Of a stretch of DNA of 64,000 nucleotides, positions 11,121 to 23,036 are shown one piece after another. A program made the translations under genes and the position numbers. How positions within the stretch are numbered: position 1 is the stretch's first letter; every line of letters begins with the position of its first letter. Under the pieces are notes generated by a model. The model was given only the letters and a program-made list of their open reading frames with translations. It made no database searches and was not told the DNA's origin. The stretch lies in assembly GCA_963666425.2 (NCBI GenBank), contig OY762825.2, positions 2,528,001-2,592,000 of the forward strand, in the 5' to 3' direction. The DNA is from Bacillota bacterium. GTDB lineage: Bacteria; Bacillota; JAAYKD01.

Positions 11121-12569
11121 TTGAAAGAAAAAATCCTAGGATTGTTGGCTTTTCTAAAAGAAAAGCAAGTGGATTATGCCGATCTGCGTGTCAATGAGAT
11201 TTTACAGGAGAATATCCAAACCGAAAATCTGAAGGTGCAGAGCTTAAGCACCACCACATCCTATGGTTATGGTATCCGTGTTTTTGTGGATGGTTCGATG
11301 GGATTTGCCGCTTCGCAAGACTTTTCTCAAATGGAAGCGACTGCTTTGCAGGCACTGGCGATTGCCAAAGCCAGCCGTTTGGTGCAAAAAACTCCAATTA
11401 AACTGGCAGCAAAACCGGTCGTCGTGGATCATTACGAAACTCCAATTGAAATTGATCCGTTTACCGTAGCAAAACAGGAAAAATTGGAACTGCTGTTTAC
11501 GGCGGAAAAAGCCATGCGCCAGGCGGCTCCTACAATCTTCCGCACCCACGGTGCTTTGGGATTCCGCAAAGAATATAAGATTTTTGCCGATACCGAAGGA
11601 TCTTATATCAGCCAAACCTTGGTGGAATCTGGCGGCGGGATTGATGCGGTTGCGGTCGCCAAAGGCGAAATGCAGACACGCAGTTTTCCCAATTCAGCCA
11701 GAGGCAACTATGCGACGGCCGGTTATGAGTTTGTGCGTGATCTGCAATTGGTGGAAAACAGCGCCAGAGTGGCGCAGGAAGCGGTGGCTTTGCTGACAGC
11801 AGAAGAATGCCCTTCCGGTTATTTCGATTTGGTTATCGATCCCAGTCAGCTGACCCTGCAGATTCACGAATCGGTGGGACACCCGCTGGAGCTCGACCGT
11901 ATTTTAGGTTATGAAGCAGGATACGCCGGCACATCATTCATCAGTACGGATATGCTGGGTAAATTTCATTACGGCTCTCCCATGATCAATATCATTGGGG
12001 ATGCTACCTGCCCGGGCGGACTCGGGACGTTTGGTTATGATGATGACGGCATTGCCGCTCAGCGCATCCCGCTGATCACCAATGGCGTGGTTGAAAACGT
12101 GCTGACCAGCCGCGATACGGCGGCAGTAGCGCAGCTTTTGCCGAATGGTACCGCCAGAGCGGATGGTTGGGCCCGGATTCCTATCGTCCGCATGACCAAC
12201 ATCAGCTTGCTGCCCGGTGACTTTGAACTGGATGAACTGATCGGCGGTGTGCAATACGGTTTCTATCTGGATATTAATCAAAGCTGGTCGATTGATGACC
12301 GCCGCACAAATTTCCAATTTGCCACAGAAATCGCCTATGAAATTAAAGACGGTAAACTGACGGGCAAGATTTTCAAGAATCCGCTTTATACCGGTATCAC
12401 ACCTGAATTTTGGAACAGCTGCGACGGCGTGGCGAAGGCGAAATACTGGAAACTCTTTGGCACGCCAAACTGCGGCAAAGGCGAACCCGGGCAAGTGGCG
12501 CATGTGGGACACGGTTCCGCACCGGCCCGCTTCAGAAAGATAAAGGTAGGTGTGGCTGATGTTCAGTAA
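11121..12569 (+). CDS. tldD: TldD metalloprotease subunit
   Basis: HESVGHPLE (HExxxH), YDDDG, PIVRMTN, CGKGEP. Confidence 0.9.
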   Translation: MKEKILGLLAFLKEKQVDYADLRVNEILQENIQTENLKVQSLSTTTSYGYGIRVFVDGSMGFAASQDFSQMEATALQALAIAKASRLVQKTPIKLAAKPVVVDHYETPIEIDPFTVAKQEKLELLFTAEKAMRQAAPTIFRTHGALGFRKEYKIFADTEGSYISQTLVESGGGIDAVAVAKGEMQTRSFPNSARGNYATAGYEFVRDLQLVENSARVAQEAVALLTAEECPSGYFDLVIDPSQLTLQIHESVGHPLELDRILGYEAGYAGTSFISTDMLGKFHYGSPMINIIGDATCPGGLGTFGYDDDGIAAQRIPLITNGVVENVLTSRDTAAVAQLLPNGTARADGWARIPIVRMTNISLLPGDFELDELIGGVQYGFYLDINQSWSIDDRRTNFQFATEIAYEIKDGKLTGKIFKNPLYTGITPEFWNSCDGVAKAKYWKLFGTPNCGKGEPGQVAHVGHGSAPARFRKIKVGVADVQ

Positions 12570-13902
12570 ATCAGAATTGTATCAGATGATTGATTGGGCT
12601 GTTGCGGCAGCCGGACAGCATCCAATTCTTGTGCTCGCCAGCAGTTCAGCCGAAGGGCTCACCCGTTTTGCCAATTCAGAAATCCATCAGAATGTCTTTG
12701 AAGATGTGACCGATCTGCGGATCACAGTGATGGGAAAACAGAAAAAGAGTCAGGTTACCACCAATAAAATCACCCGGCAGGGGATCGAGCAGGCGGTAGC
12801 GGAAGCCATTGAAAATCTGAACTTATTACCGGAAGGGGAAGAGATTCCCGCTCTGGTGAACCAACCGGCTGTCATGGAAATGGAACGTTTCAATCAGGCG
12901 CTGGCGGATGAATTTTCTGCCGAACAAAGAGCGCTGCGTCTGGGAGAGCAATTGGATCAGATTCATCTGCCATATAAGGCTTACGGTCAGCTCTCCTATG
13001 GTGAAAGCGCATTGGCTCTGGGAAATTCAGCTGGGATTCGCCGCTATTTCAGAAGCAACAGCGCCAATTGCAGTGTGCTGATCTCACACGAAAATGGCGC
13101 TTCCGGTTATGCCAGCTCGGTCGCGACCCGAGGCGGTGAACTGGAATTGGCAGCCGCTTTCCGGCGTGCCGATCAAAAAGCACAGGCCAATCAAGCACCG
13201 ATTGACCTGGATATCGGTGCCTACACAGTAATTTTAGAACCCAATGCTGTTTTTGATCTGCTGATGTACACCACGCTTTTGGGATTCTCCGGTAAAAGTC
13301 TGCAGCAGAAAAGCAGTTTCTTAACGGATCGTTTGGGAGAAAAAATCTTTGACGAAAAACTCAGCATCAAAGATGATTGGGAAAACGAAAACGCCCTCGG
13401 AATCCCGTTTGATTTTGAAGGTTCTCCGCGGCAAAAACTAAACTTGATTGATCAAGGGATTGCCAGAGAAGTCGCCTACGATCTGGCCAGCGGCGCCAAA
13501 GCCGGTGTTGCCAGCACAGGACATTCTGCCGGGATGGATATGTTTGGAGCGATTCCCATCAATATCGTCGTCACTCCGGGTGAACAAACACTGCAGCAAA
13601 TCATCGCCGAAACCAAGCAGGGCTTACTGGTTACTCGTTTTCACTATATGAATCCGGTCAATCCGCGTCAAGCCCTGTTAACCGGACTGACACGGGACGG
13701 GTTTTATCAAATTGAAAACGGTGTGGTGACTGCCGCTGTGAACAACATGCGCATGACCGAAAGTATGCTGAAAGCGTTCAACCAAATTGAGGCAATCAGC
13801 AGCGACTGCGAGCGGCTTTCCGCTTTTGTCGGCAATGTTTATGTTCCGGCAATGAAGATCAATCAATTCCATTTCACCGGCAAGACCGGTGTGAAGAAAT
13901 AA
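12559..13902 (+). CDS. pmbA: TldE/PmbA family subunit
   Basis: TRFANSEIHQN, PFDFEG, TGLTRDG; overlaps the tldD stop. Confidence 0.85.
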   Translation: MFSKSELYQMIDWAVAAAGQHPILVLASSSAEGLTRFANSEIHQNVFEDVTDLRITVMGKQKKSQVTTNKITRQGIEQAVAEAIENLNLLPEGEEIPALVNQPAVMEMERFNQALADEFSAEQRALRLGEQLDQIHLPYKAYGQLSYGESALALGNSAGIRRYFRSNSANCSVLISHENGASGYASSVATRGGELELAAAFRRADQKAQANQAPIDLDIGAYTVILEPNAVFDLLMYTTLLGFSGKSLQQKSSFLTDRLGEKIFDEKLSIKDDWENENALGIPFDFEGSPRQKLNLIDQGIAREVAYDLASGAKAGVASTGHSAGMDMFGAIPINIVVTPGEQTLQQIIAETKQGLLVTRFHYMNPVNPRQALLTGLTRDGFYQIENGVVTAAVNNMRMTESMLKAFNQIEAISSDCERLSAFVGNVYVPAMKINQFHFTGKTGVKK

Positions 13903-13927
13903 CGATCGGATCGATCTCTTGCTCAAT

Positions 13928-13974
13928 GCGTCCGTACGAAAACCATGATTGTGGGTTTCGTGCGGACGTTTTTG
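13928..13974 (+). terminator. Intrinsic terminator after tldE
   Basis: CGTCCGTACGAAA...TTTCGTGCGGACG followed by TTTTT. Confidence 0.7.
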
Positions 13975-14075
13975 CTGTAGAAACAAGTTGAAGCTGCCGT
14001 TGGTTTTGAGTTCTGATGGCACACAGAGGAGCAATTAAAAAAGATTTCAGAAAATCGGATTTTAAAAGGTTAATC

Positions 14076-14104
14076 TTGACAAAACTGCCAATTGGATGTA
14101 TAAT
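14076..14104 (+). promoter_or_regulatory. Consensus sigma-A promoter upstream of the carD-like gene
   Basis: TTGACA (14076-14081), 17 bp spacer, TATAAT (14099-14104). Confidence 0.85.
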
Positions 14105-14201
14105 AAACCCATCAAGCGAACGAATCAGAGATAAAACAGACGGAATTTTCTTAAAATAGGTGCGAATCCGATCAACGGTACAAGAATAAAGCAATGAAAA
14201 C

Positions 14202-14260
14202 AACGTGCAGTTTGCTGAGCGGAACGTAAGTCCAGTTGTGGCAAACTGTACGTTTTTTTT
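14202..14260 (+). terminator. Terminator-like hairpin inside the carD leader
   Basis: ACGTGCAGTTTGC...GCAAACTGTACGT followed by a T run. Confidence 0.6.
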
Positions 14261-14363
14261 GCCTTGATGTTTGGTCTTAGGATTGCAGTGGTTTGGCGGA
14301 CATCAATCGGCTGAATCAAAACAAACCAAAGACCCTGTCTACCCTAGGGAAGGAGTAAGGAGT

Positions 14364-14891
14364 ATGATTATGCTAACAATCAATACCTATGTTGTCTACG
14401 GTACTAACGGTGTTTGCCAGATTACTGGGATTAAGAAAGAAAAGTTCGGTGGCAGTGAGAAAGAATATTATCTCTTGAAACCGATCAATACGGAAGGCTC
14501 GATTATTTATGTACCGCTGGATAATGTAATGCTCACTTCTAAAATTAAAAACCTCCTTAGTCTGGATGAGATTCATGAATTGATTAAACACATGCCGGAG
14601 GAACAAATAACCTGGATCGCGGATAGTAAGCTCCGCGGTGAGAAATATAAAGATATTTTTGGCCGCGGCGATCGCCGGGAACTTGTTTGCATGATGAAGT
14701 CCATTTATCGTCAGAAAAAAGACCGCACCCGGGAAGGCAAAAAACTGTGGTCCGGCGATGAAAAAGCCTTGAATATAGCGGAGAAAATTCTCTTTGATGA
14801 ATTTGCTATTGTTTTGAATATTACCCCGGAACAGGTGGCTCCGTTTATCTATCAGGAACTGCAAGCCAATGGTGATACAGATCAAACCTGA
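14364..14891 (+). CDS. CarD/TRCF-RID family transcriptional regulator
   Basis: YVVYGTNGVCQI..I, YYLLKP, IYVP, and C-terminal AEKILFDEFA.VL; AGGAG RBS. Confidence 0.85.
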   Translation: MIMLTINTYVVYGTNGVCQITGIKKEKFGGSEKEYYLLKPINTEGSIIYVPLDNVMLTSKIKNLLSLDEIHELIKHMPEEQITWIADSKLRGEKYKDIFGRGDRRELVCMMKSIYRQKKDRTREGKKLWSGDEKALNIAEKILFDEFAIVLNITPEQVAPFIYQELQANGDTDQT

Positions 14892-14954
14892 TTGCTGCCT
14901 GCAATCAAATAACGTGTGGGTCAGTCTGTAGGGAAACAGCAGGTTCAGAATGGG

Positions 14955-15640
14955 GTAGGGAACGGTCTTGACCGTTCCCTATAATTTACACATGGGACAT
15001 CAATTGTTTTCAGCACCAAGCGAGGGAATAATTATAGCCTAGCGCAATAGCAGGATGGCGCAAAGGTAGGGAACGGTCTTGACCGTTCCGCACGCAGCTT
15101 TTTACGATGATTGTGCAAGGAGTACGAACGCGCAAAGGTAGGGAACGGTCTTGACCGTTCCGCACGCAGCTTTTTACGATGAGTGTGCAAGGAATACGAA
15201 CGCGCAATGGTAGGGAACGGTCTTGACCGTTCCGCACGCAGCTTTTTACGATGAGTGTGCAAGGAGTACGAACGCACAATGGTAGGGAACGGTCTTGACC
15301 GTTCCGCACGCAGCTTTTTACGATGATTGTGCAAGGAATACGAACGCGCAAAGGTAGGGAACGGTCTTGACCGTTTCAAGTGTAACATGATTTAATTATC
15401 ATCGCAAAACGATGGTACGTAACGCTAGGACGGAGTCACGCGGAACGGTCTTGACCGTTCCGCTACGCAGCTTTTTACATAGTGATATCAACACCGCAAA
15501 ACGAGGATGCTACGCTGGGACATCAATTGTTTTCAGCACCAAGCGATGGAATAATTATAGCCTAGCGCAATAGCAGGATGGCGCAAAGGTAGGGAACGGT
15601 CTTGACCGTTCCGCACGTAGCTTTTACGAAGACTGTGCAA
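14955..15640. repeat. Cluster of GTAG-type REP-like palindromes (GTAGGGAACGGTCTTGACCGTTCC), including a 72-bp tandem array
   Basis: Copies at 14955, 15066, 15138, 15210, 15282, 15354, 15441 (lacks GTAG) and 15589. The central five are spaced exactly 72 bp apart. The block at about 14994-15108 is duplicated at about 15517-15630. Confidence 0.9.
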
Positions 15641-15732
15641 GTACAAAGGACGCTCATTAGTGTAGAGAAACGGTTTCTGGAGTTGGAGAAGCTTTTTCGT
15701 AGAGCAGTAAGGATTGCTTTGCAGAACAAATC

Positions 15733-15780
15733 AAAAAATCACGGCGGCAGTCTGGCATGCTGCCGTGATTTCTTATTTTT
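15733..15780. terminator. Probable bidirectional terminator between the repeat array and tgt
   Basis: AAAAAATCACGGCGGCA...TGCTGCCGTGATTTCTTATTTTT. Confidence 0.6.
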
Positions 15781-15960
15781 ACTGTTCATAAAGAAAGGAT
15801 CCTAAAAACACAAGGCTGCACAGGAGATTGACTCAAAGAGCAAGAAATAAGAGAGAAACCTAAAAGCGGCCGGTTTGGCAAGGCAGTTTCGCTCTGCTGA
15901 CGCCCTGCCGGAAAAAATTCTGTAAGCAACAAGCGGAAAAATAGAAAATGAGGAATGAAT

Positions 15961-17070
15961 ATGGAAAATAAACTCGTATTGCCGCATGGAACCGTAAGAT
16001 TGCCGGCATTTTTCCCGGACGGCACCTATGGTGTGGTGCGTTGCCTGGATATGGAGGATCTGGAACGCTGTCAGGTTCAGGGCATTGTAATGAACAGTTA
16101 TCATTTACTGACCAAACCCGGCTTGGCGACGATCAAAGCGGTGGGCGGGCTGCATGCTTTTACCGGTTGGCAGCATCCGATCCTGACAGACTCCGGTGGA
16201 TTTCAAGTTTTTTCATTAATACGTCAAAATCCTAAATTCGGTGAGATCAGAAAAAATGAAATTGTTTTCCGGCCGGATAATAGCAATGAGAAGATCGTTT
16301 TCACTCCGGAAAAATGTATTCAGGCACAGTTTACATATGGCTCGGATATCATGATGTGTCTGGACTACTGCACGCAACCGGATGACAGCGATGAAGTCAA
16401 CCAATTCTCAGTGGAAGTCACAGTAGCTTGGGCAAAGCGCTGTAAAGCGGAGTACCTTGTGCAGATGAAGGCGAGAAAGATCGATCCCGCTAAACGGCCG
16501 TTGCTTTTTGCGATTATCCAGGGCGGCGGCAACAAAACAATGCGCAAATGGTGCGCAGAACAGCTGAAAGAAATCGGTTTTGACGGTTATGGTTTTGGCG
16601 GTTGGCCGATGGACAAAGAGGGCAAGCTCATCGAGGATATCCTGCATTTTACAGCGGACTTAATGCCGGATGAGACGCCGAAATATGCGATGGGTCTGGG
16701 CAAACCGGAAGACATCGGCGCCTGTATCAAGATGGGTTATAATTTGTTTGATTGTGTGATTCCCACCAGAGAAGCCAGACATAATCGGCTGTATGTGTTT
16801 GACAGCGACAATGCCAGCGATGCAGCCAATTATCATTATCATTACATTATGGATGATACCCATTACCGCGATCCGCAGCCAATTTCAGAGCAGTGTGACT
16901 GCCTGACTTGCCGCCGTTATTCCAGAGCATATCTGAGACATTTATATAAAGTAGGCGACTCACTCGGTTTCCGCTTGGCGACCCTGCATAATGTGCGTTT
17001 CTATACCCAGCTGATGGAGAAATACCAAGCTGAGAATATACAGGCTGGGGACACTGATGAGAAGCGTTGA
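15961..17070 (+). CDS. tgt: tRNA-guanine transglycosylase (TGT) family protein, divergent base pocket
   Basis: NSYHL, LTDSGGFQVFSL, LDYC, IIQGG, FDCVIPTR, Zn motif CDCLTC...LHN. Confidence 0.88.
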   Translation: MENKLVLPHGTVRLPAFFPDGTYGVVRCLDMEDLERCQVQGIVMNSYHLLTKPGLATIKAVGGLHAFTGWQHPILTDSGGFQVFSLIRQNPKFGEIRKNEIVFRPDNSNEKIVFTPEKCIQAQFTYGSDIMMCLDYCTQPDDSDEVNQFSVEVTVAWAKRCKAEYLVQMKARKIDPAKRPLLFAIIQGGGNKTMRKWCAEQLKEIGFDGYGFGGWPMDKEGKLIEDILHFTADLMPDETPKYAMGLGKPEDIGACIKMGYNLFDCVIPTREARHNRLYVFDSDNASDAANYHYHYIMDDTHYRDPQPISEQCDCLTCRRYSRAYLRHLYKVGDSLGFRLATLHNVRFYTQLMEKYQAENIQAGDTDEKR

Positions 17071-17851
17071 GGAGATCGACTGCCTGATCCGCGCTGCCAA
17101 GAAATATACCGGCTTATCTCCTGAGCTGATCACACGAATTTGTCAGCAGGAATATCTCAAATATAAAAAAGAAAAAGATTTGCTCAAAGCGATTCGAAAA
17201 GAGATCCATATCATTTATGGATCTTATCTTAAGGAAGATGCAATTCCTGACTTGCGGCAGCTGCTTGTATCATGGCAGCCGGCTGACGGCTCGCCGGCGG
17301 AATTAGCCGACCAACTGCTGCAGTTGCATGCGTCTACGCGGGAACGCTTTCCGGAAATCAAAGAATTCTATGCGCATTTGAGCGGTTTTCTGCGGCAAGA
17401 GGATCGGGTGCTGGACTTAGGCTGCGGTTTAAATCCCTGTGCCATCTACTGGTTCCCGGCCAGACCATTGAGTTATTGCGCATATGATCTCAATCACGCG
17501 ACGGCGGAATTACTCAATCTTTTTTTCCAAAAATCCGGTCAGACAGACTACCTGGCAGGCGCAGCTGATTTAATCCAAACTACACCAGCAGCCGAAGCGG
17601 ATCTGGTTCTGATGCTCAAACTCTTTCCTGTTTTGGAACAGCAGAAAAAAGGCAGAGCGTTTGAACTGCTCTCGCAGCTACAGGCCAGCCGTTTTGTCGT
17701 TTCTTTTCCAACGCGCAGTTTGGGCGGGAAACGCAAAGGGATGGAAAAATTCTATAGCGAATTCTTCCTTAGCCGGTTGCCCAGCGAATTTTGCGTCGTC
17801 CGTTCTTTTCAAATCAGCAACGAACTTGTTTTTTTGCTGCAAAGAGTTTAA
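17057..17851 (+). CDS. ArmA/Rmt (FmrO)-family 16S rRNA m7G1405 aminoglycoside-resistance methyltransferase
   Basis: Family motifs LHASTRER, VLDLGCGLNP, LMLKLFPVLEQQ, VVSFPTRSLGG, NELVF; 264 aa. Confidence 0.9.
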   Translation: MRSVEEIDCLIRAAKKYTGLSPELITRICQQEYLKYKKEKDLLKAIRKEIHIIYGSYLKEDAIPDLRQLLVSWQPADGSPAELADQLLQLHASTRERFPEIKEFYAHLSGFLRQEDRVLDLGCGLNPCAIYWFPARPLSYCAYDLNHATAELLNLFFQKSGQTDYLAGAADLIQTTPAAEADLVLMLKLFPVLEQQKKGRAFELLSQLQASRFVVSFPTRSLGGKRKGMEKFYSEFFLSRLPSEFCVVRSFQISNELVFLLQRV

Positions 17852-17904
17852 TTTTACTGTTCCTGTCTCCATTCATCAATTTGCATGCAGAGGAAAGAGA
17901 AAAT

Positions 17905-18834
17905 ATGATCGACAACCGTGGAATATTGTATATTGTAGCGACACCGATCGGCAACCTGGCCGATTTTTCTCCCCGGGCTATTGAAATCTTAAAAAGTGTA
18001 GATTTAATCGCTGCCGAAGATACGCGAAATTCGAGTCATTTATTGCAGCACTTTGCTATCGAAACCAAGATGATTTCTTATCATAAATTCAATGAGCAGC
18101 AGAGGGCGGCGTCTTTACTGCTGCGTTTGCTGAACGGAGAGAATCTGGCGGTCATTTCGGATGCCGGCACACCCTGCATCAGCGATCCGGGCAGCCTGCT
18201 GATTCAAGAGGCGATCAAGGCACAGATCCAAGTGATCGGGATTCCGGGTGCCTGCGCCATGCTGACAGCGCTTTCCATCTGCGGCTTTAATCTGCAGGAA
18301 TTCTACTTCGGTGGTTTTCTGCCACGCAAGAAAACCCTGATCGAGCAGGAATTCCGCAAGCGGATCGCAACGCCGCAGTGCACCTGCGCTTGGTATGAAT
18401 CGCCGATGCGCCTGAAAGCAACTTTAGCAGTGCTTTGCCAGGCAGCCCCTCAGGCGGAGGTATGTCTCTGTAATGACCTTACCAAGAAATTCGAACGGAG
18501 TTATCATGGCACGGCGCCGGAAGTAGAAAAAGAAGTGATGAGCAATCCGGATTATCAAAAAGGTGAGTATGTTCTGGTTGTCAGCTTTGCCAAATTGTCT
18601 GCCGCAGTCAATGAGGCTGAAACAGGCGCAGAAACAATCTGTCATGAAGCGAAACTGGTACAGATCATGCAGCAGCAAAACTGCTCTCTGCGAGAGGCGA
18701 TGCGAGTTTTTTATCAGATGAATCACGGCAAACTCGGTAAAAAGGAAATTTACCAAGCCGGCTTGCACTTGAAGCAATTATGCCTCGGTGGTGATGCGGA
18801 AGCGGAAATACAAGAAGAATCGGATTGTCTTTGA
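17905..18834 (+). CDS. rsmI: 16S rRNA (cytidine-1402-2'-O)-methyltransferase RsmI
   Basis: LYIVATPIGNL.D, AAEDTR, ISDAGTPCISDPG, IPGACA, GFLP, YESP.R, LTKKFE, KGEYVLV. Confidence 0.93.
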   Translation: MIDNRGILYIVATPIGNLADFSPRAIEILKSVDLIAAEDTRNSSHLLQHFAIETKMISYHKFNEQQRAASLLLRLLNGENLAVISDAGTPCISDPGSLLIQEAIKAQIQVIGIPGACAMLTALSICGFNLQEFYFGGFLPRKKTLIEQEFRKRIATPQCTCAWYESPMRLKATLAVLCQAAPQAEVCLCNDLTKKFERSYHGTAPEVEKEVMSNPDYQKGEYVLVVSFAKLSAAVNEAETGAETICHEAKLVQIMQQQNCSLREAMRVFYQMNHGKLGKKEIYQAGLHLKQLCLGGDAEAEIQEESDCL

Positions 18835-18860
18835 ACAAAATGAACAGATATAATAAGGAA

Positions 18861-20681
18861 GGGGCTGTAGCAAAATGAAAAATTGCTACAGTCTCTTTTT
18901 GATGCTCCAGTATCATTTTTCACAAACGAAAAACAAGCTAATACGAAAAACAGCAGACAGAAATATAAAGGTCAGATAAAATCTCACCCAAATACAGGAA
19001 ATATTCTGATTTTTACTATTGTTAAGCCGTAAGTTTTTTAAACAATTGTCTGCCGGTGCGATTTTGTTGAATCTTGTTGTGTAATTTGTTGATGTTGTAG
19101 CCCATTGCCACCAAAAGAATCTCTGCCAAAACCTTTTTATTGCCGCGGAGCAGGAACTGACGGAAGCCGTAATCCTGCTTGATCACGCCGAAGGCTCCTT
19201 CTGACTGAATGGAACGATTCATCCGCAGCAAGATCCCCTTGGCACTGGTGATCCGCTCCAGTGACTGTTGACGCTGCTCAATGAATTTCTTGGAGACCTG
19301 CAGTTTCCTGTTTCCCTTCGATCGGGTGCATTTCTTTTTATAGGGACACGTTCCGCAATCCTCACATGCGTAGTAGGTGATCTCACTTTCAAAACCAGAC
19401 TTGCTCTTACGTTTGCCTGTATAAACTGCTCTGAGCTTCTTTTCAGCCTGACAGGTGTATTCATCCAGTGTCTTGTCATAGGCCATGTTTTCCCTCAGCG
19501 CCATGTTGCTCTTGTATTTCTTCGTTTTAGACCGCTCATAATTTTGAGGCTTAATGTAACACTGTGTGGTTTTATTTTCAAAAAAGGTGTAATTTTCCTC
19601 GCTCTCATAACCCGCATCCGCTGTGACATCTTCGTAACTTGTCCCCAGATGTGATTCCATATTTTCCAGCAAGGGTATGAGTGTAAGCTGATCGCTGCGC
19701 TCACTGGAAACCTGGACACCTGTAATATATTCACCTTCCACTCCAAGTTGGATGTTATAACCCGGTTTCAATTGCGCGTTACGCATATGATCGTCTTTCA
19801 TATGCATGAAAGTCGCATCCGGATCAATTTTAGAGAAGCTATTCCGCCCTTGGAAGGTCGTTTGATATCCGGCATACTTTTCTTTCCGGCCGAGCAGTTC
19901 CCGAAGCTGCTCGATATCCCTTTGCAACTCGCTTTTTCGCTTGCCCTTGCCGTAGACAAACGGTGCGGTTATCCGGCGCTCGAGGATCTGCAGCAAATCT
20001 TCCGACGTTTCTGCCAGAATACCGTATTTTGCAGACAGCTCAGGCAGCCACTTCGACAGTTTGTCAAGTAGCCTGCTTTCATATTTCGTCGTGCTTTTTT
20101 TCCAGACAAAGCTATACTTGTTCGCATTCGCTTCGAGTTTTGTCCCGTCTACAAACAGATGCTCAAACTTGATTTCACTCAAGTTTGCCAGCTTTTTCAC
20201 CAATTGGTAGAAAAGCTCCTCACCGCATTTTGTCAGCCGTTTACTTCGAAAACGCGCGATTTCGCTGTGGTTAGGTGCTTTTTTTCCATTGAGCAGCCAG
20301 ATGAAATTGATATCTCGCTTACATGCCATGGCGATGGCGCGGCTGGAAAAAATGCCTTGCATACTGGCATATACCATTAGCTTCAGCATGGTAACGGGAT
20401 TTGTTGCCGGGCGACGGCCTGTGCGTTGATATGCTCTCCAAAGCGGGGTCTCATCCATCTCCTCCATTATTTCGTCTAAGAGCCGCACACTGTCATCTGC
20501 AGGAATTATTTTCTCAGCAAAAAATTCGTCAAGTTTTAGTTGCACATTTCTTTTTTTCGTGCCATAATGGACACGGTGTAGTGGTTTTTTCACGATTCAA
20601 TTATACCAAAAAAACAGAGCCTTGTGTCTGCTTTTCGCAGCCACTTGGCTCTGTTTTTTTAGGCTGTTTTGCTACAGCCCC
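18861..20681 (-). mobile_element. IS1182-family insertion sequence
   Basis: Terminal inverted repeats GGGGCTGTAGCAAAA (18861-18875) and TTTTGCTACAGCCCC (20667-20681), extended by flanking AAGGAA/TTCCTT, enclose a single transposase. Confidence 0.88.
19022..20593 (-). CDS. IS1182-family DDE transposase
   Basis: GIFSSRAI, PNHSEIARFR, FVDGTKLEANANKY, SKIDPDATFMHMK, LKPGYNIQ, ADAGYESEENY, RSIQSEGAFG. Confidence 0.93.
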   Translation of the reverse strand: MKKPLHRVHYGTKKRNVQLKLDEFFAEKIIPADDSVRLLDEIMEEMDETPLWRAYQRTGRRPATNPVTMLKLMVYASMQGIFSSRAIAMACKRDINFIWLLNGKKAPNHSEIARFRSKRLTKCGEELFYQLVKKLANLSEIKFEHLFVDGTKLEANANKYSFVWKKSTTKYESRLLDKLSKWLPELSAKYGILAETSEDLLQILERRITAPFVYGKGKRKSELQRDIEQLRELLGRKEKYAGYQTTFQGRNSFSKIDPDATFMHMKDDHMRNAQLKPGYNIQLGVEGEYITGVQVSSERSDQLTLIPLLENMESHLGTSYEDVTADAGYESEENYTFFENKTTQCYIKPQNYERSKTKKYKSNMALRENMAYDKTLDEYTCQAEKKLRAVYTGKRKSKSGFESEITYYACEDCGTCPYKKKCTRSKGNRKLQVSKKFIEQRQQSLERITSAKGILLRMNRSIQSEGAFGVIKQDYGFRQFLLRGNKKVLAEILLVAMGYNINKLHNKIQQNRTGRQLFKKLTA

Positions 20682-21173
20682 TTCCTTTTTTATTCTGCAA
20701 AGGCTGAATACAACAATGATCAGCATTGAATACAAGAGATCAAATCAGCAAGGCAGCGCTGCGGATCATTTTGCTCAGTCATTGATACGGATCGTTGCTC
20801 GGTTGTTATTGATGGTAGACTCAAAGTTGCAATCGATATCTAAAAGATTTAAAAGCGATACAAATTGTCCAATTTAGTTTACTTTTTCAAATTCAACAAA
20901 AAAAAGAGAGTATTTGCCGTTGACGAATGAGAAAATGATAAAAGTTCAAGCGTAATTTTTCTTATAATTAAATATATCTGTAGAAATAGATCTTTACCGC
21001 TTTTAGAAATTACTTATCGTGAAAATACAATTTTTAAAAAAAGAGGAATTTAGTGAATATTACCTAATTATGTTGTGGTTATTCTTTTAGTTGAATATTG
21101 GTGATGTTTCTGAAGTTTTTTTTACGATCGCACCGAATTTTAGGTTGACGCTTGCAGTAAAAGGGGGATTTGT

Positions 21174-23036
21174 ATGGATCAAACGAATGATCAAGTTGTC
21201 CATCTGCGGTATTCACTGAGAAGCAATCTTCTTTTTATCACGAAAGTAATTCGACAGCACCAGCCTCTTGTGATTCCGGCGATTTTTCTACGGGGTCTCC
21301 TGCAAGCCGGGTTGCCTATTCTTACGATTTATCTTACGAAAACAGTGCTTGATTTTTTCTCTTTATCGGAGCGCGTAAATACTGACCTTGTCGGTACTCT
21401 AGCAATGATGATCTTGATTTTATGGCTCGGCCGAACTGCGTCGAATGCTTTAGAAAAATGGCTAGCCATGCACGCCAACCGCAATCGGCATTACTTATTG
21501 CAGAAAATCGAAAACAAGGTTTTCACTATGGATTATGTCAATGTAGAAGATCCGGTTGGTCAACGTGCTCGTCAGCGAGCAATTCGGGCGATCAATTCTG
21601 ATACTTCCGGCGGAGAAGCGATGATCGTTCATTTTGGGGATCTTCTGCAGCACGGTTTTGGATTGGCATTCTTTGCAGCTTTCGTTGCGGTACTGAACGT
21701 TTGGATCTTGCTGGCACTCATTTCTGCATCACTGCTCAGTGTCTGGTTAACGCGGCTGGCTCAGCTTTATGAAGCTCGCCATAAGAGCGAAGAAAGCGTC
21801 ATTGAGCAGCGCTTGAATTACGTCCGCGAATGCGCGGTTCAGTATGAAAGTGCGAAAGACATTCGCTTATTCTCCATGTCCGCATGGTTTGTTGATTCTC
21901 TGCGCAAGAACACAGTGCAGATTGCTCTCTGGAAGCGTCGGATCCTTACCCGCTATTTTCTGGTGGATGCTGCCGGCGATTTGATGAATTTTCTGCGTGA
22001 TGGAGCCGCATATTTTTATCTGATCAATCAAGTCATCCATGGCTTTCTGACCCCTGGGGAGTTCACTTTTTATTTTGCCAGCATTGCAGGTATTTCCAAC
22101 TGGACGAGTCAGATGAACAGAGATCTGACACTGCTCAACAAAGCCAGCCTCGATATTGGTTATCTGCGCAGCTATTTGGATATTCCGGAGCATTCTTCGG
22201 TAACAAATGCTGCGAAGGTTCAATTTAGCAAGAACGTGGTACCTGAAATCCTCTTCGAGAACGTTTCTTACCGCTATCCGGGCGCAGCTGTTTGGACGCT
22301 GCATGACGTCAATCTTCGAATTCGTCCCGGAGAAAAACTGTCGATCGTCGGATTGAACGGGGCAGGCAAGACAACCCTAGTCAAACTGCTCTGTGGTCTT
22401 TATCAACCGACTGAAGGAAGAATTTTGCTTGATCATCTGGACATCTCCTCATTCAATCGTGAGGAATATTATCGCCTTTTTTCTGTTGTCTTTCAAGAAA
22501 TTCGAATTTTAGCGCTCGATGTCCAACAAAATATCGCTCTTTGTCTAAAGGAAGACATGGATCGTGCGCGCATAGAGCGAGTTATAGAGCAAGTAGGCTT
22601 AACACAAACTATAGCGGCTCTGCCACGTCAAGCAAAGACCCCCTTGACCCGAACATTAGAGCAAGATGGTGTGCTGCTATCGGGTGGGCAAGCGCAAAAA
22701 CTCTTATTGGCGCGCGCTCTCTACAAAGATGCTCCGGTGGTAATTCTCGATGAGCCAACCGCTGCCTTGGATCCCTTGGCCGAAGCCGAGCTTTATCAAG
22801 ACTTCAGTCGACTTGTTGAAGGGAAATCTTCGATTTTCATTTCTCATCGTCTGGCAAGCACTCGATTTTGTGACCGGATCGCCTTGCTGAAAGATGGCCG
22901 CATCCATGAACTTGGCAGTCATCAGGAATTGTTGGATCTTGGGGGAGAATATGCTCATATTTTCGAGGTTCAAGCTCGTTATTATCGCGAGAACAAAGAG
23001 GTGAGTGATTTTGATAAAAACGAAAGCAAACATTAG
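21174..23036 (+). CDS. ABC exporter, fused permease/ATPase (subunit 1)
   Basis: N-terminal TM region; GLNGAGKTT, LSGGQ, ILDEPT, ISHRL. Confidence 0.9.
   Translation: MDQTNDQVVHLRYSLRSNLLFITKVIRQHQPLVIPAIFLRGLLQAGLPILTIYLTKTVLDFFSLSERVNTDLVGTLAMMILILWLGRTASNALEKWLAMHANRNRHYLLQKIENKVFTMDYVNVEDPVGQRARQRAIRAINSDTSGGEAMIVHFGDLLQHGFGLAFFAAFVAVLNVWILLALISASLLSVWLTRLAQLYEARHKSEESVIEQRLNYVRECAVQYESAKDIRLFSMSAWFVDSLRKNTVQIALWKRRILTRYFLVDAAGDLMNFLRDGAAYFYLINQVIHGFLTPGEFTFYFASIAGISNWTSQMNRDLTLLNKASLDIGYLRSYLDIPEHSSVTNAAKVQFSKNVVPEILFENVSYRYPGAAVWTLHDVNLRIRPGEKLSIVGLNGAGKTTLVKLLCGLYQPTEGRILLDHLDISSFNREEYYRLFSVVFQEIRILALDVQQNIALCLKEDMDRARIERVIEQVGLTQTIAALPRQAKTPLTRTLEQDGVLLSGGQAQKLLLARALYKDAPVVILDEPTAALDPLAEAELYQDFSRLVEGKSSIFISHRLASTRFCDRIALLKDGRIHELGSHQELLDLGGEYAHIFEVQARYYRENKEVSDFDKNESKH

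Follow-up and report, generated by a model that had tools for sequence, protein, structure and literature searches.

A chromosomal tgt-rmt-rsmI operon, probably one copy of a widespread system for modifying the top of 16S rRNA helix 44

Introduction

Methyltransferases of the Rmt family, which act on N7 of G1405 in 16S ribosomal RNA (rRNA), confer resistance to 4,6-disubstituted aminoglycosides. Acquired G1405 methyltransferases defeat nearly all clinical aminoglycosides; their origin and native role are unsettled. We analyzed a stretch of 64,000 nucleotides (nt) from a Bacillota bacterium (assembly GCA_963666425.2, contig OY762825.2, positions 2,528,001 to 2,592,000), which as a whole is called the window and whose positions serve as coordinates throughout. 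On the plus strand of the window, at 15961-18834, a gene of the tRNA-guanine transglycosylase (TGT; tRNA, transfer RNA) family is followed by a gene for an Rmt-family 16S G1405 N7-methyltransferase and then by rsmI. The comparisons described below make it probable that this locus represents, on a chromosome, a widespread operon of three genes whose products modify the decoding centre at the top of 16S helix 44.

Much of the setting is already in print: the Rmt enzymes themselves, a plasmid-borne rsmH-tgt-rmtG-rsmI array, Rmt homologs from Chloroflexi, and interference between ArmA and RsmI. A review describes rmtG as part of an operon with rsmH, tgt and a gene termed 'rsmL' (PMC9311965), and in the genome of Kp13 a coding sequence for a tRNA ribosyltransferase lies upstream of rmtG (PMC3904158). 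A published tree of Rmt proteins includes uncharacterized homologs from Chloroflexi (bioRxiv 10.1101/712810). ArmA impedes the methylation of C1402 by RsmI, and methylation of G1405 affects translation accuracy (Lioy 2014), so that the ArmA-RsmI interference mentioned in an initial annotation of this locus, made from the sequence by a model, is borne out by that paper. A preprint on the RsmI-30S complex lists four enzymes, RsmE, RsmF, RsmH and RsmI, as those that methylate the P site of the 30S subunit (PMC12407886). For TGT, a precedent for a paralog with a new substrate predicted from its gene neighborhood is DpdA, which was assigned DNA as its substrate on that basis and inserts 7-deazaguanines into DNA (Hutinet 2016, PMC5699537).

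Literature searches that covered one searchable library, and not the first descriptions of the surroundings of rmtD and rmtG, did not find in print the separate TGT clade described here, its pocket signature, or the co-variation of RsmI residue Arg196 with Rmt, nor did they find the near-obligate pairing of this TGT with Rmt across phyla or its clustering with RsmF, RsmH and RsmE.

Results and Discussion

The three genes and their families

The first gene, at 15961-17070, is named TGT2 here and was assigned from the open reading frame (ORF) listing, family profiles, an alignment and a tree; residue numbers given for TGT proteins are those of the Zymomonas mobilis enzyme. The ORF as listed opens at 15955 (15955-17070, 371 residues), and the ATG at 15961 appears the likelier start because GAGGA, at 15950-15954, sits 6 nt before it. 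The product scores 339 bits against PF01702 and 336.7 bits against TIGR00430, the equivalog model (cut-off 306.75). The second gene, at 17057-17851, encodes a 264-residue Rmt-family 16S rRNA (guanine1405-N7)-methyltransferase of the FmrO fold, assigned from family profiles and alignment to solved structures. The third, at 17905-18834, encodes RsmI, the 16S rRNA C1402 2'-O-methyltransferase (222.6 bits against TIGR00096, cut-off 167.9), and begins with an ATG at 17905 that is preceded by a ribosome-binding site. The tgt2 stop codon (17068-17070) overlaps the methyltransferase start at 17057 by 14 nt, and 53 nt separate rmt from rsmI (17851 to 17905). The initial annotation had described three co-oriented genes with the same overlap and gap, and the ORF listing gives identical figures; the four ArmA/Rmt motifs that it had noticed in the middle gene, HASTRER, DLGCGLNP, LKLFPVLEQQ and SFPTRSLGG, are all found in the 264-residue translation. 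All three genes score above NCBIfam cut-offs, and the three-gene observation is confirmed as lying beyond chance.

The Rmt protein scores 261 bits against NF000466 (cut-off 250), with residues 11-262 on profile positions 7-254, and 138.8 bits against the FmrO model PF07091 (cut-off 27). It aligns end to end with solved m7G1405 (N7-methylated G1405) methyltransferases, at 175 bits for 6pi9, 138 for RmtB (3frh) and 121 for Sgm, and also with ArmA and RmtC; residues H91, S93, T94, E96, R97, D120, C123, G124, N126, P127, D144, K188, G224 and M229 are invariant between it and RmtB2, RmtD1, RmtE2 and RmtG. The score against NF000466, the full-length alignment and the HxSTxER and DxxCGxNP motifs make it like RmtA-H, ArmA, Sgm and FmrO, from which it differs in being chromosomal and in belonging to an operon with rRNA modifiers. 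Judged by its family, it would place m7G at G1405. All five 16S copies of the source genome match the bacterial small-subunit rRNA model in full, and the one copy read has the normal CCCGUCA around G1405, so the target G is present.

The source genome, a 3.2-Mb assembly (G000), contains two TGT genes. One lies directly after queA (G000:C1:181075-183434), with which it makes up the pair classical for queuosine, and scores 569.7 bits against PF01702, as against 338.4 bits for the copy in the cassette. Only one RsmI and one FmrO-family gene occur in the whole genome. Because there are two TGT matches and one RsmI match, the cassette tgt is a paralog and rsmI is the sole housekeeping copy. Of the separate housekeeping copies that the initial annotation had raised for both genes, the one for tgt therefore exists, beside queA, and the one for rsmI does not. 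No protein in the genome reaches the cut-off for QueC (best 27.8 bits against 150.3); salvage of queuosine precursors is probable.

Linkage of TGT2 and Rmt across genomes

Scanning with the Rmt alignment, one genome per species, gave at least 573 loci with relatives, of which the best 80 were analyzed. These 80 are the most query-like loci rather than a random sample and are dominated by Chloroflexota; the other sources are Clostridia, Treponema, Muribaculaceae, Chthonomonadales, Patescibacteria and Proteobacteria. In 67 of the 80, a TGT2-type gene ends no more than 400 nt upstream of Rmt on the same strand, a figure that becomes 65 of 76 when only loci with enough upstream DNA are counted; at locus L029, TGT2 is 520 nt from Rmt, beyond the 400-nt limit. 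The tgt2 stop and rmt start overlap in 46 of 60 pairs, with start codons picked heuristically. Over 61 loci, the pairwise distances of TGT2 and of Rmt are strongly correlated (Mantel r 0.90, reached by 0 of 2000 permutations), which fits co-inheritance of the two proteins, although shared ancestry alone would also yield such a correlation. A converse scan seeded with TGT (80 loci) returned 13 TGTs with Trp-Pro at positions 231-232 (W-P type), ten of them with Rmt just downstream, and found no housekeeping-type TGT (L/V/F/M-[SA]-VGE) with Rmt within 3 kb.

Other neighbors recur as well. The rsmI gene is adjacent in 24 of the 80 Rmt loci, nine times downstream of rmt, which is the order in the window, and 15 times upstream of tgt2, while rsmH lies upstream in six. 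In 18 loci a second Rmt-like gene follows, its product belonging to the FmrO family and scoring below the Rmt cut-off (162-190 bits against 250). A Pfam scan of 101 ORFs flanking the 80 loci placed an RsmF-type methyltransferase (PF01189 plus the RsmF N-domain) immediately downstream in 18 loci and an N-terminal fragment of one in a further locus; RsmE lies downstream in one. By their family assignments, the recurrent partners of the tgt2-rmt pair (Rmt, the second Rmt-like protein, RsmI, RsmH, RsmF and RsmE) are enzymes of the top of helix 44. That Rmt-type genes normally sit in an operon with decoding-centre modifiers points to a physiological role for m7G1405 beyond resistance.

Several further arrangements were seen among these loci. 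Many Chloroflexota-type loci read rsmI-tgt2-rmt-rmt2-rsmF (for example L077, L085, L087 and L101). The gene smpB, whose product is the partner of transfer-messenger RNA (tmRNA), lies just upstream of the Rmt gene or of the cassette in five of the 80 (L059, L096, L098, L102 and L105), and a gene for ribosomal protein S6 lies downstream in L083.

RsmI differs at its G1405 contact where Rmt is present

The window RsmI aligns with Escherichia coli RsmI over residues 4-230 and shares with it an above-cut-off family score and Lys200, a helix-44 contact needed for activity. It departs from the E. coli protein nearby: C-N-D-L-T-K-K-F-E stands in place of A-R196-E-L-T-K200-T-W202-E, so that residue 196 is Asn instead of Arg, 197 is Asp instead of Glu, and 202 is Phe, still aromatic, instead of Trp. 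Its family score (222.7 bits) is among the lowest in the phylum; of the 37 other sampled genomes that gave a match, most lie at 229-297. From its family it is expected to place the 2'-O-methyl group on C1402, three bases from G1405. According to the cryo-electron microscopy preprint, Arg196 of E. coli RsmI hydrogen-bonds the G1405 base and Trp202 stacks on it (PMC12407886).

The loss of Arg196 follows the presence of Rmt. In the window's phylum, Arg196 occurs in 30 of 30 RsmI proteins from Rmt-less genomes and in none of 41 from Rmt loci or genomes, of which 27 are encoded adjacent to the cassette genes, 11 in the same locus without adjacency, and three elsewhere in the genome; the replacing residue is Asn in 25, Cys in ten, and another in six. 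A second phylum, that of genome G061 (Chloroflexota by locus titles), has Arg in 0 of 13 RsmI proteins from 12 Rmt-bearing genomes as against 52 of 63 from Rmt-less genomes, the other 11 of the latter having His (4), Lys (3), Ser (2), Asn (1) or Cys (1). When the sets are pooled and de-duplicated to 146 distinct RsmI proteins, Arg is found in one of the 53 whose locus or genome carries Rmt, as against 82 of the 93 whose genome has none. The same split is seen within the window's own family, where the Rmt-less genomes G002 and G004 read R-E and the window and its same-genus relative G001 read N-D. Among 216 alignment columns, that of Arg196 ranks first for association with Rmt by both measures used; by one of them, the Glu197 column comes second and that of Trp202 is among the first ten.

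On a FastTree phylogeny of RsmI, built without the tested columns, Rmt status changes ten times and Arg196 eight times. Rmt-bearing tips lacking Arg are nested within Arg-type clades at four places (L218; L215; L195 with L214; L060), and we read the non-Arg RsmI proteins that accompany Rmt as having five or six separate origins. On balance we favor the view that the change at residue 196 is an adaptation to Rmt-bearing ribosomes. RsmI in Rmt lineages would have given up the arginine that hydrogen-bonds G1405, as the co-variation and the published structure together suggest, and the loss would allow C1402 to be methylated on subunits already bearing the cationic m7G1405. Arg196 set against m7G1405 thus offers a testable, residue-level explanation for the published clash between ArmA and RsmI. 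The initial annotation had suggested that the linked RsmI might be an adapted paralog: it is the sole copy and not a paralog, yet it does show a change of the predicted sort, at a residue in contact with G1405. In other lineages real RsmI paralogs exist, since four loci hold two rsmI genes and some cassette-adjacent copies have Leu or Met at the position of Lys200.

If the operon reading is right, Rmt would methylate N7 of G1405 and RsmI the 2'-O of C1402, TGT2 would most likely act in the same pathway, and m7G1405 would probably be a mark that the ribosomes of this organism carry constitutively, insensitivity to aminoglycosides being a by-product. A competing account takes rmt as a plain aminoglycoside-resistance gene, for self-protection or acquired, that lies by chance between translation housekeeping genes without any functional tie to them. 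It draws on the known capacity of the family to give resistance, on an IS1182 transposase that flanks the cassette, on the patchiness of the cassette in the phylum (TGT2-type genes in five of 301 genomes), and on rsmI being a sole copy that also serves as the housekeeping gene. We nevertheless judge it improbable, given that the cassette tgt is not the housekeeping copy and belongs to a separate clade with a rebuilt pocket (see below), that TGT2 goes with Rmt in most of the loci examined from several phyla, and that RsmI is altered at the G1405 contact where Rmt is present. Strict anaerobes take up aminoglycosides poorly, and selection by these drugs would be weak if the host is one. Self-protection of an aminoglycoside producer was set aside, as no biosynthetic genes were seen in the 101 ORFs around the 80 loci or in window positions 12000-23000.

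A number of observations weigh against the operon reading or its parts. The 80 loci were selected for likeness to the query, as stated above, and 13 of them have no adjacent TGT2. Clinical Rmt enzymes work without TGT2. Three W-P-type TGTs (L262, L265 and L275) lack a neighboring Rmt, and TGT2 still passes the equivalog cut-off for tRNA-guanine(34) transglycosylase. With regard to RsmI, 11 of the 93 proteins from Rmt-less genomes also lack Arg, and the Rmt-bearing genome G064, whose cassette is decayed, has a housekeeping RsmI with Arg196. Most Rmt-linked RsmI proteins fall in two clades, and just six independent pairs remain on supported branches (median sign-test p 0.125); in these, Arg changes opposite to Rmt in about four, shows no difference in about two, and never changes the same way. 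Finally, the R196A or W202A substitution alone hardly lowers the activity of E. coli RsmI in vitro, while the double mutant loses about 70% (PMC12407886); because R196A alone keeps activity, Arg196 is not essential, its loss could be neutral, and the assignment of the window protein to RsmI stands.

At the sequence level, TGT2 has a rebuilt base pocket

Aligned with the Z. mobilis enzyme, the window TGT2 keeps Asp102, Asp156, Cys158, Gln203, Gly229, Gly230, Met260, Asp280 and the zinc ligands Cys318, Cys320, Cys323 and His349. Across 70 TGT2 rows, D102, D156, Q203, G229, G230, D280 and the four zinc ligands are intact in all 70. What follows Gly230 is not conserved with the housekeeping enzymes. 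The window protein reads G-G-W-P-M-D-K in place of the L231-A/S232-V233-G234-E235 segment, and in the 70 rows position 231 is W in 69, 232 is P in all, 233 is L or M, 234 is D in 67, and 235 is variable. Among the TGTs of the TGT-seeded scan that lack W-P, 56 of 68 read L/V/F/M-[SA]-VGE.

A tree of 171 TGTs places 73 of the 76 rows that bear the signature in a single clade (support 91), from which all 95 housekeeping rows are absent; the W-P signature served to define the groups, and the tree retained the few columns that make it up. When 322 columns were ranked by how well they separate the 73 TGT2 rows from the 95 housekeeping rows, the top ranks included Val45 (Asp in TGT2), Gly234 (Asp), Leu231 (Trp), Leu259 (Ala), Val233 (Leu or Met), Ser/Ala232 (Pro), Pro160 (His), Phe155 (Leu) and Met260 (Leu). 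We take these columns to line the base and ribose-34 pockets, and residues 231-235 to be the switch that reads guanine N7 as against the preQ1 side chain; a proline at 232 would presumably remove the backbone NH that reads N7. In comparison with the Z. mobilis and E. coli enzymes, then, TGT2 has the same fold family, the catalytic Asp102 and Asp280, the guanine-binding Asp156, Gln203 and Gly230, and the zinc site, but forms a separate clade with a W-P-L/M-D-x segment and with Asp at 45, His at 160, Ala at 259 and Leu at 260. It also differs from housekeeping TGT in having no linkage to queA and in being a second copy where checked: a housekeeping TGT is retained in four of four TGT2-bearing genomes examined, scoring 463-509 bits as against 314-321 for TGT2. 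The bacterial tRNA enzyme, usually linked to queA, acts with preQ1 on G34 of the tRNAs for Asn, Asp, His and Tyr; TGT2 is encoded among rRNA modifiers. Judged by its residues, TGT2 looks like an active transglycosylase whose base pocket has been systematically rebuilt and made more acidic.

Could TGT2 have no enzymatic role, and serve as an RNA-binding or assembly partner, or merely supply a promoter and translational coupling for rmt? The frequent stop/start overlap would suit coupling, and clinical Rmt enzymes function without TGT2, with rmtE2 keeping only a truncated tgt. Against this stand Asp102, Asp156, Asp280 and the four zinc ligands, kept in every one of the 70 rows, and a mean column identity of 54% for TGT2 as against 38% for Rmt; conservation above that of Rmt argues for selection on an active enzyme, and we regard a purely non-enzymatic TGT2 as very unlikely. 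A structure prediction for a TGT2-Rmt complex (61 alignment rows each) gave no answer (score 0.00), neither for nor against binding.

The gene neighborhood of TGT2 points to 16S helix 44 as a candidate substrate, while passage of TIGR00430 and retention of Thr285, Arg286 and Arg289, which we take to be RNA contacts in the Z. mobilis TGT, leave room for a tRNA. One tentative possibility is a tRNA enzyme that replaces G34, or a guanine elsewhere in tRNA, with some base that is not preQ1 and so retunes decoding on m7G1405 ribosomes, which would explain its association with Rmt. The intact catalytic and zinc residues are in keeping with this, as are the effect of G1405 methylation on translation accuracy (Lioy 2014) and a genome that, without an above-cut-off QueC, probably depends on salvaged bases. 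It fits less well with recurrent operon partners that are all 16S helix-44 enzymes, with queA adjoining the other tgt copy, and with the housekeeping TGT being retained in all four genomes checked.

The other candidate role, which we consider doubtful enough to offer as speculation, is that TGT2 is the first guanine transglycosylase to act on rRNA, working on helix 44 together with Rmt. In one version of this idea, methylation at N7 would make G1405 a cationic, good leaving group, and the rebuilt acidic pocket (Trp-Pro-x-Asp and Val45 to Asp) would recognize m7G1405 and exchange it. Were this so, the Rmt enzymes captured by pathogens would be a detached step of a two-enzyme pathway of decoding-centre hypermodification, to which RsmI, and perhaps RsmF and RsmH, would be co-adapted. 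The suggestion in the initial annotation that the TGT is a third, unknown modifier remains live, the protein being a second copy in a distinct clade.

Whatever its substrate, a conserved TGT paralog with a rebuilt pocket may hold a new activity in a family already studied in depth, the kind of lead that gene neighborhood once gave for DpdA. DNA modification of the DpdA type was itself considered and set aside. DpdA is archaeal-TGT-like, has its zinc motif in an extra domain and clusters with genes of DNA metabolism (Hutinet 2016, PMC5699537), whereas TGT2 is bacterial-type, has no DNA-metabolism neighbors and clusters with rRNA methyltransferases.

Some TGT variants fall outside the TGT2 clade: the motif is G-A-R-P-I-D in L271, from a gammaproteobacterial metagenome-assembled genome (MAG), and in L274, from a Falkowbacteria MAG, and it is G-G-W-P-V-K-E in L275. 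None of the three has an Rmt within 3 kb.

Distribution in the phylum and origin of the cassette

Among 61 relatives searched, Rmt scores above the family cut-off in two, the source genome and the same-genus G001; G049 scores 185 bits. TGT2-type genes, at 47% identity or more, occur in five of 301 sampled genomes (G000, G001, G049, G097 and G137), the others giving 37-45%, and all five have Rmt beside TGT2. G001 has the identical tgt2-rmt-rsmI order, with identities of 93, 88 and 90%, and keeps the whole neighborhood including the upstream genes; beyond rsmI in G001, no match was found to window ORFs of at least 120 residues from 5000-32000. The tgt2-rmt-rsmI order is also carried by G049 and G137, from another family of the phylum. 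No Rmt and no TGT2 were found in G002 and G004, of the same family as the window, or in G007, of the same order; their RsmI proteins are 39-42% identical to that of the window and are encoded in unrelated gene contexts.

The RsmI of G001 belongs to an 18-tip clade, all of it Rmt-bearing, that mixes Bacillota, Chloroflexota and Spirochaetota (support 92), and the window RsmI is taken to fall in the same clade. Acquisition of the whole cassette is suggested because G002 and G004, without Rmt or TGT2, have an Arg-type RsmI in a different gene context. The cassette, rsmI included, probably entered the genus by horizontal transfer, with the original rsmI displaced and lost. Base composition gives no sign of a foreign origin: the G+C fraction is 0.474 in the bin containing the cassette and 0.44-0.51 in flanking bins. 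The initial annotation had called the cassette native and chromosomal. It is chromosomal, and its gene order is conserved in G001, G049 and G137, but as to native descent, the comparison with G002 and G004 suggests acquisition instead. In the phylum of G061, FmrO-family genes were found in 15 of 81 sampled genomes, a tally that includes G344, which was left out of the other counts.

In two loci from cultured gut isolates, Flavonifractor porci and Flintibacter porci (L042 and L043; G064), an intact-looking rmt stands with a 54-residue tgt remnant containing an internal TGA and a 143-residue rsmI stump, while a housekeeping TGT and an RsmI with Arg196 are encoded elsewhere in the genome. This looks like a decayed, recently acquired cassette and is the one exception to the association of Rmt with non-Arg RsmI.

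Relation to the clinical plasmid arrays

The window Rmt is 31-40% identical to clinical Rmt and ArmA proteins. A search of 72,556 plasmids with it gave 1595 matching records, all below 60% identity, the best being RmtF1 at 40.3%, and the cut-offs of the named clinical subfamilies (RmtA-H and ArmA, 500-550 bits) are not reached by it, the best scores being 185.8 for RmtE and 175.2 for RmtF, whose cut-offs are 500-525. Because identity is only 31-40%, the protein, by this comparison, is a family member and the direct source of no known clinical gene.

The accessory genes are closer. Window TGT2 is 55.7-70.2% identical to the tgt products of the top 16 plasmid records listed, as against about 38-40% to enterobacterial and other housekeeping TGT. 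Six plasmid records were opened, and in all six tgt lies just upstream of rmt, among them rmtD1 and rmtG records, for which the initial annotation had mentioned an upstream tgt. The arrays comprise rsmH-tgt-rmtG followed by a short methyltransferase stub (Klebsiella and Enterobacter plasmids), tgt-rmtD1, a 5'-truncated tgt followed by rmtE2, and tgt-metallophosphoesterase-rmtB2 (L021, Providencia rettgeri plasmid CP118864). The methyltransferase stub that follows rmtG corresponds to the N-terminal part of an RsmI and is 46% identical to residues 8-83 of the window RsmI. The rmtG array thus resembles the window in having tgt before rmt and an rsmI, here truncated, after it; it differs in having rsmH, which the window cassette lacks. 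The plasmid arrays also differ in that their Rmt proteins are 31-36% identical to that of the window, in being cut by IS26, IS91 or ISCR-type elements, and in the truncation of rsmI. The metallophosphoesterase gene between tgt and rmtB2 was not seen in the other arrays opened.

The truncated tgt beside rmtE2 is 70-71% identical to window TGT2, its nearest relatives being the window and G001 (71%), while RmtE2 itself is 36% identical to the window Rmt. For the rmtD1, rmtG and rmtB2 arrays, the accessory genes are closest to those of MAGs from Oscillospiraceae, Christensenellales and other Clostridia (TGT 70-74%, RsmH 70-71%), yet the Rmt proteins of those cassettes are only 40-46% identical to the rmtD1, rmtG and rmtB2 products. 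The sample of relatives used here was chosen for likeness to the window, and from these identities no donor of the clinical rmt genes can be named. The initial annotation had proposed the window gene as a possible reservoir of clinical rmt genes; at this distance the idea goes too far for that gene, only accessory genes being closer, and holds only at the level of the cassette family. For resistance surveillance, tgt and rsmH are better conserved than rmt, and the closest relatives to which they point in this sample, for the rmtB2, rmtD, rmtE and rmtG arrays, are cassettes of the gut Clostridia type.

Flanking features

The nearest feature downstream of the operon, and outside it, is an IS1182-family transposase gene on the minus strand at 19022-20593 (NF033551, 374.7 bits). 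Upstream, a terminator-like hairpin on the plus strand at 15736-15771, with a 14-bp stem and a T run, was recognized from a consensus scan and the sequence; it closes the upstream unit and is the likely 5' boundary of the operon. A promoter scan from the hairpin to the start of tgt2 gave no convincing sigma-70 site, and an Rfam scan of 13800-21200 matched no family, hence showed neither a riboswitch nor a leader ahead of tgt2.

Farther upstream, two large ORFs (482 and 450 residues) at 11121-13902 are a putative TldD/PmbA-type pair, and a protein with a CarD_TRCF_RID domain is encoded at 14271-14891; the order of these genes is kept in G001. Between the CarD-like gene and the operon lies a 72-nt tandem repeat, at 15058-15375, with 4.4 copies and 96% matches, each unit of which contains an inverted repeat and a promoter-like pair of hexamers.

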